Assembly: GCA_002408565.1 (NCBI GenBank)
Contig: DHTA01000005.1
Span: 108,049 to 172,048 of the forward strand
Direction: 5' to 3'
Origin: Patescibacteria group bacterium UBA5272
GTDB lineage: Bacteria > Patescibacteriota > Minisyncoccia > Phycocordibacterales > UBA5272
DNA: 64,000 bases
The translations under genes were made by a program, and so were the position numbers. Under the pieces are notes generated by a model that made no database searches, had not been told where the DNA came from, and worked only from the letters and a program-made list of their open reading frames with translations. The first letter of the stretch is position 1. Every line of letters starts with the position of its first letter. Shown piece by piece: positions 3,420 to 10,516 of the stretch.

Positions 3420-4511
3420 ATGAAAATCTTATACGTAATTACCAAAAGCAATTGGGGCGGAGCGCAAAAATATGTGTTTGATTTAGCTCTCGCTATGAAA
3501 AATTTTGGCTATGATGTGGCAGTGGCTTTTGGAGGCTCTGGCAAGCTTGCGGAGAAGCTAAAAGAAAAGGAAATTCGTACTATTGAGATCCCTAATTTAG
3601 AGAGAGATGTAAACTTTCTGAAAGAGCTATCGGTTTTAAGATATTTAGGAAAAGTTTTTAGAGATGAAAAGCCGAATGTGGTGCATTTGAATAGTTCCAA
3701 GATTGGAGTCTTGGGAGCTATCTTAGCCAGAATGACTAATATTAAAAAAATAATTTTTACTGCACACGGATTTGCTTTCAGGGAAGATAGATCTAAAGTA
3801 GAAGTCACTTTAATCAAATTTTTATCTTGGCTAACAATTTTATTTTCCCATAAGACAATTTGTGTTTCAGAAAGGGATTTGAGAGACGTTGAAGATTGGC
3901 TTTGGATAAAAAATAGATTGACGGTTATTCAAAATGGAATTGAAATTAGGGAAATATCTAAGCCAGAGAGACCGAAAGAAGATTTAATAAAGATTGTTTC
4001 TATAGGCGAGCTTCATAAGAATAAAGGATTTAAATATGCTCTAAAAACTATAAATATTTTGAAAGAGAAAGTGTCAAATTTTAAATACACGATTTTCTCT
4101 TTTGGGGGAGAAGAGGAAAATAAATTGAGAAAGAAAATCGTAAAACTAAATTTACAGAATTTTGTAGAGCTGATCATAACCAAAGAAAAGTCTGACGACG
4201 AACTCAAAAATTTTGATATTTACTTTCTACCTTCTATTAAAGAAGGATTGCCATATGTCCTCTTGGAAGCTTCTCTAAATTATTTACCTATAGTCGCTAG
4301 CGAGACAGGTGGAGCCGGGGAAGTTGTAGAAAATAATAGAAGTGGATTTTTGGTTAAAACAAAAGACAAAGAAGGTTTTGCAGTGGCTCTGGAAAAATTA
4401 ATTAGAGATAAGGAGCTGCGAGAAAGTTTTGGAAAAGAGGCAAGAGAAATCGTAGAGAGTAAATTCAATATCGAGACCATGATCGCCAAAACTTTGAGTC
4501 TTTACAGTTGA
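3420..4511 (+). CDS. Family-4 glycosyltransferase (GT-B fold)
   Basis: N-terminus YVITKSNWGGAQKYVFDLA and a C-terminal EGLPYVLLEA...E motif (E-x7-E) fit Glycos_transf_1. Confidence 0.7.
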   Translation: MKILYVITKSNWGGAQKYVFDLALAMKNFGYDVAVAFGGSGKLAEKLKEKEIRTIEIPNLERDVNFLKELSVLRYLGKVFRDEKPNVVHLNSSKIGVLGAILARMTNIKKIIFTAHGFAFREDRSKVEVTLIKFLSWLTILFSHKTICVSERDLRDVEDWLWIKNRLTVIQNGIEIREISKPERPKEDLIKIVSIGELHKNKGFKYALKTINILKEKVSNFKYTIFSFGGEEENKLRKKIVKLNLQNFVELIITKEKSDDELKNFDIYFLPSIKEGLPYVLLEASLNYLPIVASETGGAGEVVENNRSGFLVKTKDKEGFAVALEKLIRDKELRESFGKEAREIVESKFNIETMIAKTLSLYS

Positions 4512-4679
4512 TTTCGTGTCTTGGTTTGGATCCCTATCTTATTTGTATTTTTTTAAAAAATATGATATATTATTTTCAGTTAAGTTTTGAGTTCTAATCA
4601 AGAGAAACAGCTAAATTTAAATCAAACTTTTTCAACTGTTTTTTCATTTTTCGCTCAATTTTCTATCGAGCCATTTTTT

Positions 4680-4720
4680 ACCCTCTGTCCGTTCTGCGGA
4701 TGGAGGGTTTTTCTTTTATT
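4680..4720 (+). terminator. Rho-independent terminator-like hairpin plus U-tract, about 170 nt downstream of the GT4 stop
   Basis: ACCCUC-UG-UCCG-UUCUG-CGGA-UG-GAGGGU followed by TTTTTCTTTTATTATTTT. Confidence 0.5.
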
Positions 4721-4727
4721 ATTTTCA

Positions 4728-4736
4728 TGCTAAAAT
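4728..4736 (+). promoter_or_regulatory. Extended -10 element (TGcTAAAAT) for tRNA-Trp
   Basis: TGCTAAAAT lies 9 nt upstream of the tRNA 5' end. Confidence 0.4.
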
Positions 4737-4745
4737 CTAAAGACT

Positions 4746-4818
4746 GGGTCTATAGTTCAGTGGTAGAATAGCGGTCTCCAAAACCGTTGACCGAGGTTCG
4801 AATCCTCGTGGACCCGCA
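4746..4818 (+). tRNA. tRNA-Trp (anticodon CCA)
   Basis: Cloverleaf folded by eye: acceptor GGGUCUA/UGGACCC, anticodon loop CUCCAAA, T-arm GGUUCGAAUCC. It aligns nearly position-for-position with E. coli tRNA-Trp. Confidence 0.9.
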
Positions 4819-4860
4819 TCAAAGATCGTATTTTAAAACTATGTTACAATAGTTTCTATT

Positions 4861-5415
4861 ATGACGACTGCCTATTGCTCACAATATAGAGACATTGAAG
4901 ACAAAATCTGGAAAGATAGAGCTTGTTCTCTTTGTGCTCTTTGGATGGCTTTAAAATCTTTAAAAAGTGATTTTAATTTGTCTCCCAATGAATTATTGAA
5001 AAAAGGACTTTATATAAACGCTTTTGTAGATCCTGGATATTGGAGACATGACAGACTGACAGTTCTTTCTCACAATTATGGACTACCTTCTTATGCGGAA
5101 GAGTTTAAAAGTGCCCCTTTTGGAAAAGAGACAAAATACGCGGAAGAAATTTTGAATCATGGAATAAACAAAATTTTTAATTTTTTAAAAAATGGGGAAG
5201 GTATGATTATAGTTTCTGTGCCAAAAGATTTTATACATTTTGATAAGCCACATTCTATATTGTTGCATTCTGTAAAAGAAGAAAATAATGAAAAATATTT
5301 CATCTATAATGATAGCGCCAAAGAAAACGAAGAAGAGGGTAAAAATCTCAAAGTTTCTCTCCAAGATTTTGCAAAGTCTTGGAGGAGATTGGCTATATTC
5401 ATCAATAAGATTTAA
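4861..5415 (+). CDS. Papain-fold cysteine peptidase, C39-like (Peptidase_C39_2/BtrH-like), stand-alone
   Basis: N-terminal Q...C pattern (CSQYRD...DRACSLCALWMAL) resembles the Gln/Cys of the C39 active site. A downstream His (HFDKPHSILLHSV) could complete it. No signal peptide. Confidence 0.4.
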   Translation: MTTAYCSQYRDIEDKIWKDRACSLCALWMALKSLKSDFNLSPNELLKKGLYINAFVDPGYWRHDRLTVLSHNYGLPSYAEEFKSAPFGKETKYAEEILNHGINKIFNFLKNGEGMIIVSVPKDFIHFDKPHSILLHSVKEENNEKYFIYNDSAKENEEEGKNLKVSLQDFAKSWRRLAIFINKI

Positions 5416-5456
5416 ATAAATTTTTAGAGAATATCTGTGCTAAAATTAAAGTATCT

Positions 5457-6089
5457 ATGAAAAAGAAAAATATAATTATTTTAATTTTAATATTATTAAT
5501 AGCATTTATTGGTAGTGTTTATTGGTTATTTAATACCTACGACAAACTTTCTTTAAGGGGAAGGAATGCTCCTTCCGAGATTGTCCTTAGTGACGCCGAG
5601 AAATTCCAAGCTGAATATCCTGGAGTCTCTCCAGATAATGTTTTCGTTTATAAGTCAGCTAGTGAAATTATTGATATTTTAAAAACCGGTACAGGATTAG
5701 TTTATTTAGGTTTTCCAGAATGTCCTTGGTGCCAGAAATATTCTATTTATTTAGATGAAGTAGCTAGAGAGCAAAATTTAGAAAAGATTTATTATTATAA
5801 TGTTCGCCAAATCCGTTCCGATAACGCTCCGGAATATCAGGAAATGGTAGCTCTTCTTCAAGAGTTCTTAGACAAAGATGCAGATGATAATCCTAGAATC
5901 TTCGTGCCAGATTTGACAGCTGTCAAAGATGGTGAAATTATTGCACATGACAATAGCACTTCTTTAAACTCTTCTGCGGATGGTACTCCAGCTGAGTGGT
6001 GGACAGAAGAAAGAGTTCTAAATATCAAAGAGGCTTTCAAAAGTATGATTGAGCCAGTCAATGTTTGTGAGACAACTTGTAATCAATAA
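5457..6089 (+). CDS. Membrane-anchored thioredoxin-fold protein (CPWC redox motif)
   Basis: N-terminal TM helix. LVYLGFPECPWCQ is a thioredoxin-like CxxC after a beta strand. It resembles the thioredoxin-family bacteriocin transport accessory proteins. Confidence 0.55.
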   Translation: MKKKNIIILILILLIAFIGSVYWLFNTYDKLSLRGRNAPSEIVLSDAEKFQAEYPGVSPDNVFVYKSASEIIDILKTGTGLVYLGFPECPWCQKYSIYLDEVAREQNLEKIYYYNVRQIRSDNAPEYQEMVALLQEFLDKDADDNPRIFVPDLTAVKDGEIIAHDNSTSLNSSADGTPAEWWTEERVLNIKEAFKSMIEPVNVCETTCNQ

Positions 6090-6173
6090 TATATAAATTC
6101 TTCGAAATTTATTTTTCGAATCAACCCCGCTTCGCGAAAATTCCAAAAACAAATTTCTCGAATTTTCTATAAA

Positions 6174-6206
6174 AAACGCGCCAAAAGAGCGCGTTTTTTA
6201 TTTTTT
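6174..6206 (+). terminator. Rho-independent terminator
   Basis: AACGCGC-CAAAAGA-GCGCGTT followed by TTTTTTATTTTTT. Confidence 0.6.
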
Positions 6207-6221
6207 CTAAGAAAGGCTTTA

Positions 6222-6230
6222 TGATATAAT
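6222..6230 (+). promoter_or_regulatory. Extended -10 promoter element (TGATATAAT) for alaS
   Basis: Part of the recurrent motif CTTTATGATATAATGCT, 31 nt upstream of the alaS ATG. Confidence 0.45.
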
Positions 6231-6260
6231 GCTTTCAAATCATTTAACTTAAAAGCTATT

Positions 6261-8111
6261 ATGACAATTAATGAAATTAGAAAAAAATATTTAGAATTTA
6301 TGAGAGGTAAGGGACATGTTATTGTCAGATCTGCTTCTCTTGTTCCAGAAAATGATCCAACTACTCTCTTTACTGCAGCTGGCATGCAACCTATGATTAA
6401 CTATATTCTCGGCGCGACTCATACAGCTGGAAAGAGAATTGTTGATACTCAAAAATGCTTTCGCTCTCAGGATATAGAAGAAATTGGGGATAATAGACAT
6501 ACCACTTTTTTTGAAATGCTTGGAAATTGGAGTTTTGGAGATTATTTTAAAAAAGAACAAATTGCTTGGATGTATGAATTTTTGACAAATAAAGAAGTTG
6601 GTCTTGGTCTTTCCAAAGATAGACTTTATTTTTCTTGCTATGAAGGAAATCAAAAGTTGAATGTTCCTAAAGATGAAGATTCAAAAAATTTCTGGTTAGA
6701 GAATGGTGTCACAGAAGATAAAATTTATTTTTACGATGATAAGAAAAATTGGTGGAGCCGAAGTGGAATTCCAGAAAATATGCCAGTCGGTGAGCCGGGT
6801 GGACCAGATTCAGAAATCTTTTTTGATTTTGATCCAAAAGGTGAAAAGAAGATTCACAAAAATAGTAAATTTGCTAAAGAAGCTTGTCATCCAAACTGCG
6901 ATTGTGGACGATTTGTAGAAATTGGAAACAGTGTTTTTATTCAATATAAAAAGACTGAAAACGGACTTGAAGAATTGATTCAAAAAAGTGTGGATTTTGG
7001 TGGAGGGTTAACTAGAATGGCGGCAGCTGTAGAAGACGATGAAGATATTTTCAATTTAAATGTTTTTGAACAGGCTAAAAAGATTATAGAAGAAAAATCT
7101 GGAAAAAAATATAAGGAAAGTGAAGAGAATAAAATTAATTTCAGAATAATTTTAGATCATATTCATGCAGCTACATTTTTAATAGGGGATGGAGTTTTTC
7201 CTGGCAATAAAGATCAAATGTATTTTGTGAGAAGGCTTATTCGTCGAGCGATTGTGGCTGGGCATAAACTTGGAATCCAAAACAATTTTACTAAAGAAAT
7301 TGCTAAAACTTTTGTTGAAAATTATAAAGAAGCAGAAGAGTATTTAGGAAATAATCTTTCCAAAAATAAAAGTGTGATTTTAGAAGAAATGGAGAAAGAA
7401 GAAAACAAATTCCGAAAGACTTTAAATAATGGCATGAAAGAATTTAGTAAAGTCACCAGTGAAGGTATTACTGGAGAAGAAGCTTTCAACCTTTTGCAGA
7501 CTTACGGTTTTCCAATTGAGCTCACTTTAGAATTGGCTGAAGAGAAAAATCTAAAAGTAGATTTAGAAACTTTTATCAAACTTAAAGAAGAACATTCTTT
7601 AAAAAGTAGAACCGCTAGTGAGGGTATGTTTAAAGGAGGGTTGGCTGATCAATCTGAAATCACTACCGCACTTCATTCCACTTGTCACTTGATGTTGGCT
7701 GGTATGCGAAAAATTTTAGGAGAAAATGTCACTCAAGCTGGAAGCAATATTAATAGCGAAAGACTACGATTTGATTTTGCTTTTGATAGGAAGGTGGAAA
7801 AAGAAGAAATTGAAGCTATAGAAAATTATGTAAATCAAGCTATACAAAAAGGTTTTTCTACCAAAATTGAAGAGATGAATAAGGAAGAAGCTAAAGCTAA
7901 AGGAGTGACTGGAGCTTTTTGGGAAAAATATCCAGAAATTGTGAAAGTTTATAATATGATTGGCGAGGATGGTGAGATTTATTCTCGAGAATTATGTGGT
8001 GGTCCACATATAGAAAATAGTAGAGATTATTTAGCCAAGAAAACTTTTAAAATTGTAAAAGAAGAATCTGTCTCCGCAGGGGTACGAAGATTTAAAGGGA
8101 TATTGGAATAA
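6261..8111 (+). CDS. alaS: Alanine--tRNA ligase, short form (catalytic plus editing domains, no C-Ala domain)
   Basis: N-terminus matches the AlaRS catalytic core (PTTLFTAAGMQP, HTTFFEMLGNWSFGDYFK). The editing-domain HxxxH (HSTCHLM) and the CGGPH zinc site are present. 616 aa against about 870 for canonical AlaRS. Confidence 0.9.
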   Translation: MTINEIRKKYLEFMRGKGHVIVRSASLVPENDPTTLFTAAGMQPMINYILGATHTAGKRIVDTQKCFRSQDIEEIGDNRHTTFFEMLGNWSFGDYFKKEQIAWMYEFLTNKEVGLGLSKDRLYFSCYEGNQKLNVPKDEDSKNFWLENGVTEDKIYFYDDKKNWWSRSGIPENMPVGEPGGPDSEIFFDFDPKGEKKIHKNSKFAKEACHPNCDCGRFVEIGNSVFIQYKKTENGLEELIQKSVDFGGGLTRMAAAVEDDEDIFNLNVFEQAKKIIEEKSGKKYKESEENKINFRIILDHIHAATFLIGDGVFPGNKDQMYFVRRLIRRAIVAGHKLGIQNNFTKEIAKTFVENYKEAEEYLGNNLSKNKSVILEEMEKEENKFRKTLNNGMKEFSKVTSEGITGEEAFNLLQTYGFPIELTLELAEEKNLKVDLETFIKLKEEHSLKSRTASEGMFKGGLADQSEITTALHSTCHLMLAGMRKILGENVTQAGSNINSERLRFDFAFDRKVEKEEIEAIENYVNQAIQKGFSTKIEEMNKEEAKAKGVTGAFWEKYPEIVKVYNMIGEDGEIYSRELCGGPHIENSRDYLAKKTFKIVKEESVSAGVRRFKGILE

Positions 8112-8610: not shown

Positions 8611-9105
8611 ATGAACGAAAATTATTTGAGGAAGTATTTGGATATTAAAGTCTTTGACGACAAGACTCAAGTTCAATTTTGGAAAGATGAAGTTTTGGTT
8701 GAGAGTTCAGAGTTTGCTTTAGGTTTAAATCAAATCTCTGAAAATTTGGTGTCTGATTATATTATGAATAATTGGTTAGCTGGGATTCTTTATATTTTGG
8801 ATAAAATTTCTCTTTTAGATAGAATACCAACTTTTTTTTATGTGAGTGCTGAGAGATATGGTAGTGTCTTTGAAAAATTTTTGAAAAAACCTGAAACTTA
8901 TTCACAGTTTTATTTAGAGCCGACCGAATACGGTTTAGGTGTCCATGTTATAATAAAAAAGATAAATCCTATCAATATTAATTCTCATCGAGAGGATTAT
9001 ATAAAGAATGAGGGCATCAGGGATAAAGTTATTATTAAAGATAATAAAGAAGATTCAAAATCATATGAGAGATATACGAAGGCCATATCGCAATTCAAGG
9101 TCTGA
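8611..9105 (+). CDS. Hypothetical protein (164 aa)
   Basis: ORF heading the infA/ribosomal-protein operon. It overlaps the next ORF by 40-100 nt. Confidence 0.4.
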   Translation: MNENYLRKYLDIKVFDDKTQVQFWKDEVLVESSEFALGLNQISENLVSDYIMNNWLAGILYILDKISLLDRIPTFFYVSAERYGSVFEKFLKKPETYSQFYLEPTEYGLGVHVIIKKINPININSHREDYIKNEGIRDKVIIKDNKEDSKSYERYTKAISQFKV

Positions 9106-10516
9106 GGAAAAAAATCCAGCCAGACACAAAGATAACTCTTCTCGTTTTTCGGAGAGAGAAGAGATTATTTCTAGAGACGAAGAAGTTTCTAGAAGAAAAA
9201 AAGAATTTGGAGATGTTGAGTATACCAGAGAAGGCAGACCAATGATTAAAGCTTCCTCTCATTTTGATGTCAAACCAGCAAATTATAGAAGAGAGAGATC
9301 GGGAGAAGAGTTTGATGTTTTAAAAAGAAGTGAATTTTTCAATAATACTAGTCAAAGAAATTTTGATGAAGACAAACTTAAAGAGTTTAAACAAAAAAGA
9401 AATAAAAAGAAAACTGAAAGGAGGGCTTTTGGTATAATTTTTCTTATTTTAATTGTGGGAGGTTTAGCCGCTTGGACTTTCTTATTTAATAGCGTCAAAC
9501 TTTATGTCAATCCAAAATATGAAGATATAGAGCTCACTGGAAGTTTTTTGGTTTTTAAGGATGACATAGTGGTAAATTATGCCAGCTCAACCTTAACCAA
9601 AACTGTCTTAAAATCTGAGCCAAAAGAAGTCAATCAAAAAGCTGCTGGAGAATTGACCATTTACAACAATTATTCTGAAGCCCCTCAAGTTTTGATTACT
9701 AATACTAGATTTCAAACTCCAGACGGAAAGATTTTCAGGATTGGTGAAAGTGTGACCGTGCCTGGGAAAAAGGGGACGACTCCCGGATCTGTTAAGGTGA
9801 AAGTTTCAGCTGATGCTTATGGGGCAGAATATAATATTTCTGCTACCGAATTTACTATTCCTGGTTTTAAAGGTACAGCTAGATTTGATGGCTTTTATGC
9901 AAAGTCCACCGAGCCTATGACTGGCGGAGTTTCAGGAATTGTACAAATTGTTTCTCCAGATGATATAGCCAAGGCTAAACTAGAGCTTTCTTCTTCTATT
10001 AAATCAAACATAATCGCGGAGGCTGAGAAAATCAAAAGAGAAAATTATGTGACTTTAGTTAAAGCTCCTTTAATCACTTACACTGACAATCAAGAAGATC
10101 TCATGACTACTGAAAAAACTTCTTATGAATTGACTGGCTCAGGAATTATTCTTTCTATACGAGAAGAAGTTTTAGCAAAAATGTTAGCTCAACATGCTTT
10201 AGGAGATTCTTACAATGAGTTGGAAAGTGTTCGTTTAGATAATGAAGAATATTTAATCTTTTCTCTAGATGAAAAGACAGACTTGGCAGCTGATATTATT
10301 AAAATTGATATCACTGGAAGAGCGAGAATCGTTTGGACTTATGATGTTGAAAATATTAAAGCTTCTTTGGTAGGTCAAAGGTTGACTACTTTAAATGAAG
10401 TTCTAGCAAATTATAGTTCAGCTATTACTGATAGCTCATACAACGCTTCTCCTTCTTGGATTAAAAAGTTTCCAACTTCTATAGAAAGAATTAGACTTAT
10501 TGAAGAAATAAGGTAA
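9065..10516 (+). CDS. Hypothetical membrane-anchored protein (start ambiguous: 9008 or 9065)
   Basis: Basic Arg/Ser/Glu-rich N-terminal region, a single TM (FGIIFLILIVGGLAAWTFLF), then a roughly 330-aa extracytoplasmic domain. No family recognised. Confidence 0.5.
   Translation: MRDIRRPYRNSRSEEKNPARHKDNSSRFSEREEIISRDEEVSRRKKEFGDVEYTREGRPMIKASSHFDVKPANYRRERSGEEFDVLKRSEFFNNTSQRNFDEDKLKEFKQKRNKKKTERRAFGIIFLILIVGGLAAWTFLFNSVKLYVNPKYEDIELTGSFLVFKDDIVVNYASSTLTKTVLKSEPKEVNQKAAGELTIYNNYSEAPQVLITNTRFQTPDGKIFRIGESVTVPGKKGTTPGSVKVKVSADAYGAEYNISATEFTIPGFKGTARFDGFYAKSTEPMTGGVSGIVQIVSPDDIAKAKLELSSSIKSNIIAEAEKIKRENYVTLVKAPLITYTDNQEDLMTTEKTSYELTGSGIILSIREEVLAKMLAQHALGDSYNELESVRLDNEEYLIFSLDEKTDLAADIIKIDITGRARIVWTYDVENIKASLVGQRLTTLNEVLANYSSAITDSSYNASPSWIKKFPTSIERIRLIEEIR

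Follow-up and report, generated by a model that had tools for sequence, protein, structure and literature searches.

Does a free-standing C39-like cysteine peptidase followed closely by a membrane-anchored thioredoxin constitute a functional module, or do the two genes only happen to stand side by side? The question is raised by a locus of Patescibacteria group bacterium UBA5272 (assembly GCA_002408565.1, contig DHTA01000005.1), where two open reading frames (ORFs), at 4861-5415 and 5457-6089, lie downstream of a tRNA-Trp gene. Positions are those of the window, that is, the whole stretch of 64,000 nucleotides that was analysed (positions 108,049 to 172,048 of the contig, forward strand). An earlier sequence-only reading of this DNA had located both ORFs, as we do, and had proposed that their products form a peptide-maturation or disulfide-handling module. 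We find that the gene pair arose locally and recently, its members being chance neighbours in a variable chromosomal spot. On balance, we favour with modest confidence the explanation that the two genes are co-transcribed and functionally independent, the peptidase being a cytosolic thiol hydrolase and the thioredoxin a general envelope oxidoreductase.

The comparison of related loci provided the main evidence. The window clade comprises 16 lineages, represented by the window itself, L001 to L012, L103 (same species as L008), L104, L105/L106 and L107. In all 12 related genome loci the same order is kept: a gene for a glycosyltransferase of family 4 (GT4), tRNA-Trp, the peptidase gene, a variable interval and the gene for alanyl-tRNA synthetase (AlaRS). 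The thioredoxin gene is found between the peptidase gene and AlaRS in five of the 16 lineages and is missing in the 11 others; it adjoins the peptidase gene in the window, L001, L105 and L012, and in L008/L103 a nitroreductase gene separates the two. Some 75 peptidase loci at greater distance all lack it. The same interval holds a nitroreductase gene in 12 of the 16 lineages and sometimes a divergent HxlR regulator or a malic enzyme gene (L104 and L107). These data show that the thioredoxin gene is one of several accessory genes, with those for nitroreductase, HxlR and malic enzyme, which come and go in the interval. The co-occurrence in relatives that a module would lead one to expect is thus largely lacking, and the data lend no support to the proposed module for peptide maturation or disulfide handling.

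The history of the two genes was also compared at the nucleotide level. Over tRNA-Trp and the peptidase gene (4730-5430 versus 196-896), the nucleotide identity of the window to its closest relative, L001, is 94-100%, and from a point within the thioredoxin gene onward it is only 53-80%; the drop within the thioredoxin gene indicates that the two genes have separate histories even among such close relatives. The high-identity segment results either from recent recombination or from a chimeric join within a co-assembled metagenome-assembled genome. Its flanks are 47-80% identical between window and L001, with AlaRS at about 80%. The window has no nitroreductase gene, and its positions 6069-6170, which carry the first two of three hairpins described below, sit where L001 has a 633-bp nitroreductase gene (1602-2234). 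In L008 (6578-8538) and L103, the nitroreductase gene is duplicated and flanks the thioredoxin gene on both sides.

The peptidase of 184 residues matches Peptidase_C39_2 (PF13529) over model positions 6-143 of 143, with 22.5 bits (cut-off 24, E 1.9e-4), and Peptidase_C39 (PF03412) with 12.8 bits (cut-off 22, E 0.11). Its 35 close homologues, at 53-98% identity, all come from Patescibacteria or the candidate phyla radiation (CPR), for example Paceibacteria and Nomurabacteria, and close homologues carry precomputed PF13529 matches. In the wider family, 116 of 123 members match PF13529 at E<=0.01, the best at 3.4e-18. The AlphaFold2 model is C39/papain-like, with a predicted local distance difference test score (pLDDT) of 95.3 and a predicted template modelling score of 0.92. 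The single sequence and the close-homologue profile gave nothing but chance matches when run against solved structures; the wide-family profile matches C39 structures by sequence, its Cys, His and Asp aligning with Cys17, His96 and Asp112 of ComA and with their equivalents in LahT150. The protein has no hydrophobic segment, the maximum Kyte-Doolittle mean over 19 residues being 0.75, and its gene occurs once in the window.

All these results agree with the C39-like, free-standing and cytoplasmic peptidase which had been read from the letters. Of the signature quoted at the time (CSQY...ACSLCALWMAL, which is indeed present), Gln8 and Cys22 are conserved but the other two cysteines, Cys6 and Cys25, vary among close homologues. 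Together with His131 and Asp151, which are conserved in the same alignment, Gln8 and Cys22 form the catalytic set. The analysis shows a soluble protein lacking a signal peptide, with a papain/C39 fold and an intact Gln-Cys-His-Asp set.

The thioredoxin protein (210 residues) was equally well described by the sequence-only reading: it contains the CPWC motif and is anchored in the membrane through one N-terminal helix (residues 6-24, Kyte-Doolittle 2.94), residues 4-33 being helical in the model. This model, with a pLDDT of 89, has a thioredoxin fold, and a Foldseek search with it retrieved many thioredoxins and the bacteriocin transport accessory protein 1ZMA from S. pneumoniae; a profile search against PDB sequences returned nothing significant. 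Across 41 homologues, CPWC (89-92), the cis-Pro loop V150-P151 and a C-terminal C204-x3-C208 pair are invariant. This second pair, in the family a C-x2-3-C at the extreme C-terminus, belongs to a tail that is modelled with low confidence; it might serve as a shuttle disulfide. With the PedC/BrcD equivalog TIGR01295, the protein scores 26.4 bits for a cut-off of 120, and all 41 homologues match the equivalog weakly, far under that cut-off. The family PF20207, formerly DUF6568, is now named "PedC-like". Its version PF20207.5 has precomputed matches to P0036, a homologue 98% identical to the window protein, and to essentially all the thioredoxin homologues listed; version PF20207.4 matches two of the 41 homologues and not the window protein. 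The family is large (887 matches in a word-indexed search) and includes proteins of Bacilli. In three Firmicutes-like contigs, its gene is solitary, among genes such as those for a Mur ligase, UvdE and DinB, with no C39 gene. Genes of the family are shown to be widespread on their own, in Firmicutes-like bacteria as well as in CPR. For the window protein, the best reading is a thiol-disulfide oxidoreductase with a general role outside the cytoplasm, in a cell envelope with a single membrane. The protein shares with PedC and BrcD (TIGR01295, 1ZMA, PF20207) the N-terminal anchor, the thioredoxin fold and the CxxC motif, but differs from them in that its gene is not part of a bacteriocin operon, that it has the additional invariant C-terminal CxxxC and that its homologues are encoded by solitary genes in varied contexts.

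A C39 fold with its full catalytic set, next to a protein whose similarity to PedC/BrcD is weak but consistent, recalls a bacteriocin-type module, in which the peptidase would remove a double-glycine leader in the cytoplasm, the precursor and transporter genes being elsewhere in the genome, and the anchored PedC-like thioredoxin would form or isomerise disulfides after export of the peptide. In the pediocin system, PedC works with a C39-bearing ABC exporter (PMC4919988), and a cytosolic peptidase combined with an extracytoplasmic thioredoxin would fit this paradigm; the 41-nt gap without terminator between the genes and the retention of the pair in the nearest relatives point in the same direction. 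We nevertheless hold such a module to be very unlikely. Beyond the lineages and distant loci that lack the pair and the solitary thioredoxin genes of other genomes, the peptidase family has a housekeeping character, its genes being linked to pheST, gyrB and other aminoacyl-tRNA synthetase genes, as described below. There is no PCAT-type ABC exporter in the window, and the only ABC-type ATPase ORF, of 226 residues, lies 56 kb away from the peptidase. A search for double-glycine leader ORFs in six frames over the 64 kb (expression L-x3-E-L-x2-I-x-G-[GAS] near the start codon, which covers the consensus leader only) found none, extending to the whole window what the sequence-only reading had seen in the flanks. 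Because PF03412 and TIGR01295 both score below their cut-offs and neither an exporter nor a precursor gene is present, we place neither protein in the bacteriocin-specific families; both are probably members of known Pfam families, PF13529 and PF20207. The peptidase is most likely not a bacteriocin leader peptidase but a peptide or amide hydrolase.

The comparison with the C39 domain of PCAT/AMS transporters (PCAT1, ComA PEP, LahT150; PF03412) leads to the same distinction. The papain-like fold and the Gln/Cys/His/Asp set are common to both. The window peptidase, in contrast, stands alone, whereas the C39 domain forms the N-terminal part of an ABC transporter; it exceeds that domain by about 45 residues and has the family-specific conserved His63 and Glu81. 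Neither a double-glycine leader gene nor an exporter lies near its gene, and the context of its family consists of housekeeping genes.

This family extends well beyond the window clade. An exhaustive profile search yielded 382 clusters at 50% identity, nearly all of 165-215 residues, and the source names of the members are all CPR lineages; some homologues are already named "C39 family peptidase" by NCBI. Among 123 diverse members, conservation is 90% or more at S7, Q8, C22, H63, E81, H131 and D151, and all positions of the family signature, S-Q...C...H63...E81...H...D...F...W, are present in the window peptidase, which scores 203 bits against the family hidden Markov model.

To describe the usual neighbourhood of these genes, distant loci were collected with a 13-sequence alignment, giving 75 non-identical metagenomic or genomic loci; 47 of them extend 1.5 kb or more upstream and serve for upstream counts, and 44 have enough sequence for downstream counts. 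Outside the window clade, the closest relatives, with 33-37% identity, are all encoded immediately downstream of pheS-pheT, the genes of phenylalanyl-tRNA synthetase (PheRS). PheRS genes are present in 41 of the 47 loci and gyrB follows downstream in 33 of the 44. Immediately upstream and on the same strand, 36 of the 47 loci have a gene with an NlpC/P60 domain, which is located inside PheT in 27 cases and free-standing in nine. The commonest order is therefore pheS, pheT with an NlpC/P60 insert, the peptidase gene and gyrB. The PheT proteins with this domain are of about 780-810 residues; in the one from L018 (2642-4996, 785 residues), NlpC/P60 (PF00877, 66.8 bits) occupies residues 351-476, inserted within the B5 domain, and the B3/4 editing domain is intact (184.6 bits). 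Such PheT proteins also occur in L016, L021-L066 and other CPR contigs, and the Cys (FDCSS), His (DHVG) and His (IHA) triad of NlpC/P60 is conserved in 19 non-identical PheT sequences. Other loci (L013 4167-5877, L014 3253-4999, L040, L046) have a monomeric PheRS of mitochondrial type (382 residues, tRNA-synt_2d and FDX-ACB), and between it and the peptidase gene stands a gene of 195-200 codons with both halves of B5 flanking NlpC/P60. The latter looks like the sole piece of PheT kept after loss of the beta subunit.

Two further contexts were confirmed through Pfam. Members of the family lie directly upstream of leucyl-tRNA synthetase (LeuRS) genes, with gaps of 84 and 9 nt (L074 2510-3679, L075 4968-8069), and others beside gatC-gatA (L083 2331-5504, L088, L096, L073), some with the order gatC-gatA-NlpC/P60-peptidase. 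The S51 peptidase and YkuD are occasional neighbours. The four types of context (PheRS, LeuRS, gatCA and tRNA-Trp/AlaRS) hence all involve genes of aminoacyl-tRNA synthesis. The searchable literature yielded no description of a CPR-wide stand-alone subfamily of C39-like peptidases, of PheT proteins bearing NlpC/P60, or of a linkage of C39-like peptidases to tRNA-charging genes. In the window clade, none of 13 loci has an NlpC/P60 gene directly upstream of the peptidase, and NlpC/P60, PheRS and gyrB genes are all absent from the 64 kb.

The repeated neighbourhood of aminoacyl-tRNA synthetase, Gat and tRNA genes suggests that the peptidase might be an accessory of tRNA charging and work with the NlpC/P60 domain in B5 of the PheRS beta subunit. 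Its thiol active site would attack the ester or amide of an aminoacyl or peptidyl group; it might, for instance, remove the acyl group from aminoacyl-tRNA that is mischarged or N-blocked, pass aminoacyl groups on through a thioester or trim a specific nascent N-terminus. We judge this unlikely, and just as unlikely its wider form, according to which CPR bacteria at large would have, within their tRNA-charging machinery, a class of cytosolic papain-fold enzymes not described so far, to which the peptidase would belong. These enzymes would be paired with the B5-inserted NlpC/P60, or with a separate B5-NlpC/P60 gene where PheRS is monomeric, and would serve deacylation, proofreading or thioester-mediated aminoacyl transfer on aminoacyl- or peptidyl-tRNA or on nascent N-termini; in the lineage of the window, the peptidase gene would have been rewired to co-transcription with tRNA-Trp, next to AlaRS. 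We know of no papain-fold enzyme acting on aminoacyl-tRNA, and such a function would be without precedent for the fold. In genomes as small as those of CPR, where translation genes make up a large share, the adjacency may arise by chance or through conserved housekeeping operons. The intact B3/4 domain of PheT means that a replacement editing activity is not obviously needed, and gyrB is as constant a neighbour as PheRS.

The presence of gyrB points to another possibility, by analogy with toxins of the same fold. The C39 toxins StbD-CT and Cpe1 cleave GyrB and ParE in their HAGG|K loop (bioRxiv 10.64898/2026.05.07.723447). The window peptidase might likewise regulate or process, in a site-specific manner, a cytosolic Gly-Gly protein such as GyrB or a ubiquitin-like protein, the latter by analogy with the UfSP and ZUFSP proteases. 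Of the readings considered here we give this one the least credit. StbD-CT and Cpe1 are delivered domains accompanied by immunity proteins, whereas the window peptidase is encoded by a conserved chromosomal gene with no immunity gene; in the window clade this gene is not near gyrB. Constitutive cleavage of GyrB with no immunity protein would be toxic, and the structure of the peptidase is closer to PCAT1, PeiR and 3ERV than to the toxin.

Other relatives help in defining the peptidase. ACTMAP (C19orf54), the actin-maturation protease, is a cytosolic C39-like protease. It resembles the peptidase family in standing alone in the cytosol, and 28 of the 123 family members match its family PF09778 and five of the 123 PF21646; ACTMAP, however, is eukaryotic, the matches are weak (best E 4.6e-7) and the window peptidase has none at E<=1. 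Relatives in PF13529, such as the putative C39-like peptidase 3ERV of Bacillus anthracis and endolysin domains, share the conserved catalytic Cys and His, but the endolysin and secreted members work on cell walls from outside, while the window peptidase has no export signal, and no characterised member shares a context linked to pheT, gyrB or aminoacyl-tRNA synthetase genes. The pseudomurein endoisopeptidases PeiR and PeiW are lytic enzymes of viral or archaeal origin which act from outside the cell, unlike the window peptidase; PeiR resembles it in structure, with no detectable sequence similarity.

We therefore return to the reading that we favour, of a cytosolic thiol hydrolase encoded beside an unrelated envelope oxidoreductase. 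The peptidase would cut a peptide or amide bond of an intracellular substrate, and the likeliest substrates may be small or murein-type peptides, which would be degraded together with a cytosolic NlpC/P60 partner encoded elsewhere. The amino acids thus freed would feed tRNA charging in organisms unable to make them. The thioredoxin domain would face outward, with an N-in, C-out topology, and serve thiol-disulfide exchange in the envelope in general. The idea of peptide degradation draws on the partnership with NlpC/P60, on the structural resemblance to PeiR and 3ERV, on the S51 peptidase and YkuD neighbours and on the use of PF13529 in cell-wall lysis, the family being counted as a cell-wall lytic domain in endolysin surveys.

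Several observations weigh against this explanation. An NlpC/P60 domain inside a tRNA synthetase is an odd place for an enzyme of murein-peptide recycling, and the locus of the window clade and the whole 64 kb are without NlpC/P60, its partner being assumed elsewhere in the genome. The score of the window peptidase is 1.5 bits under the PF13529 gathering threshold. Finally, the gene pair is kept in the closest relatives of the window, L001 and L105/L106 (83% identity), and recurs in L012; its retention in the nearest relatives leaves, strictly speaking, a little room for a lineage-specific functional link between peptidase and thioredoxin.

Co-transcription was deduced from the layout of the locus (Table 1). 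Since the 41 nt that separate the peptidase and thioredoxin ORFs contain no terminator and terminators flank the whole, tRNA-Trp and the two genes form one transcription unit by position. The tRNA is likely to be co-transcribed with the peptidase gene because it is found upstream of it in 12 of 12 related loci, at a distance of 5-43 nt in seven of 13 loci, the window included.

Table 1. Features of the tRNA-Trp/peptidase/thioredoxin locus, in window coordinates.
Feature	Coordinates	Strand	Remarks
GT4-family glycosyltransferase	3420..4511	+	Conserved upstream anchor of the locus
Terminator-like hairpin and T-run	4680..4708	+	Closes the upstream glycosyltransferase gene; 5' limit of the tRNA-Trp/peptidase/thioredoxin unit
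tRNA-Trp (CCA)	4746..4817	+	Peptidase gene starts 43 nt downstream
C39-like (PF13529-type) cytosolic cysteine hydrolase, 184 aa	4861..5415	+	
PedC-like (PF20207/DUF6568) thioredoxin-fold protein, 210 aa	5457..6089	+	
Hairpin 1 (TTCGAAA / TTTCGAA)	6101..6120	+	Single occurrence in the window
Hairpin 2 (GAAAATTC ... GAATTTTC)	6136..6167	+	Single occurrence in the window
Intrinsic terminator, 13-bp stem (6169-6201) and T-run	6169..6211	+	Ends the unit before AlaRS
Alanyl-tRNA synthetase, 616 aa	6261..8111	+	Downstream anchor, kept in 12/12 related genome loci

Three hairpins had been announced downstream of the thioredoxin gene, including the TTCGAAA/TTTCGAA palindromes. They exist (fold z-score of -3.2), but they are arranged in tandem rather than nested, and the last one is the intrinsic terminator, which has an A-run on its 5' side and is potentially bidirectional. 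A repeated element was considered for hairpins 1 and 2 and rejected, each being found once in the window. An Rfam scan of 4400-6400 gave the tRNA alone above the gathering score; the 3' hairpins met only models of terminator-containing small RNAs and leaders, far below threshold. Horizontal transfer of the gene pair was rejected as well, given the uniform G+C content (28-37% over 2-9 kb of the window).

The surroundings of the locus gave some additional observations. The AlaRS of the window is a short form, and its L103 homologue consists of tRNA-synt_2c and tRNA_SAD only. Typical bacterial AlaRS has roughly 870 residues, and the shorter length suggests that the C-terminal C-Ala domain is missing. 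Downstream of AlaRS, two overlapping ORFs (8611-9105, 164 residues, and 9008-10516, 502 residues) are kept in 12 of 12 related loci; Pfam gave nothing significant for them, only a weak, sub-threshold match to the GlxA beta-barrel. Between tRNA-Trp and the peptidase gene, GIY-YIG-type ORFs of 77-92 residues occur in L008 (5714-5992), L011 (5697-5930) and L104 (3751-3984), and none in the window. In L011 (4817-5600), a second tRNA of 73 nt with a UCA anticodon stands beside tRNA-Trp(CCA), to which it is about 80% identical; ARAGORN calls it a selenocysteine tRNA, and it could be a Trp tRNA that reads UGA. The same locus has three more partial copies of the 3' end of tRNA-Trp (CGAATCCTCGTGGACCCGC), about 155-180 nt apart, on a segment that includes a masked stretch. 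They look like scars left at att sites by integrating elements, or like an artefact of assembly, and the window has no such att-type copies.

The gene pair as such is ordinary, two members of known families which became neighbours by chance in a variable spot. Its interest resides in the unexpected genomic company of the peptidase family, which is almost always beside genes of aminoacyl-tRNA synthesis. As a matter of caution, stand-alone C39-like genes of CPR should not be annotated as bacteriocin-processing peptidases. If the link to these genes is functional, it would point to a new activity that assists the translation apparatus, or to a route of peptide salvage, in bacteria with reduced genomes that depend on a host.

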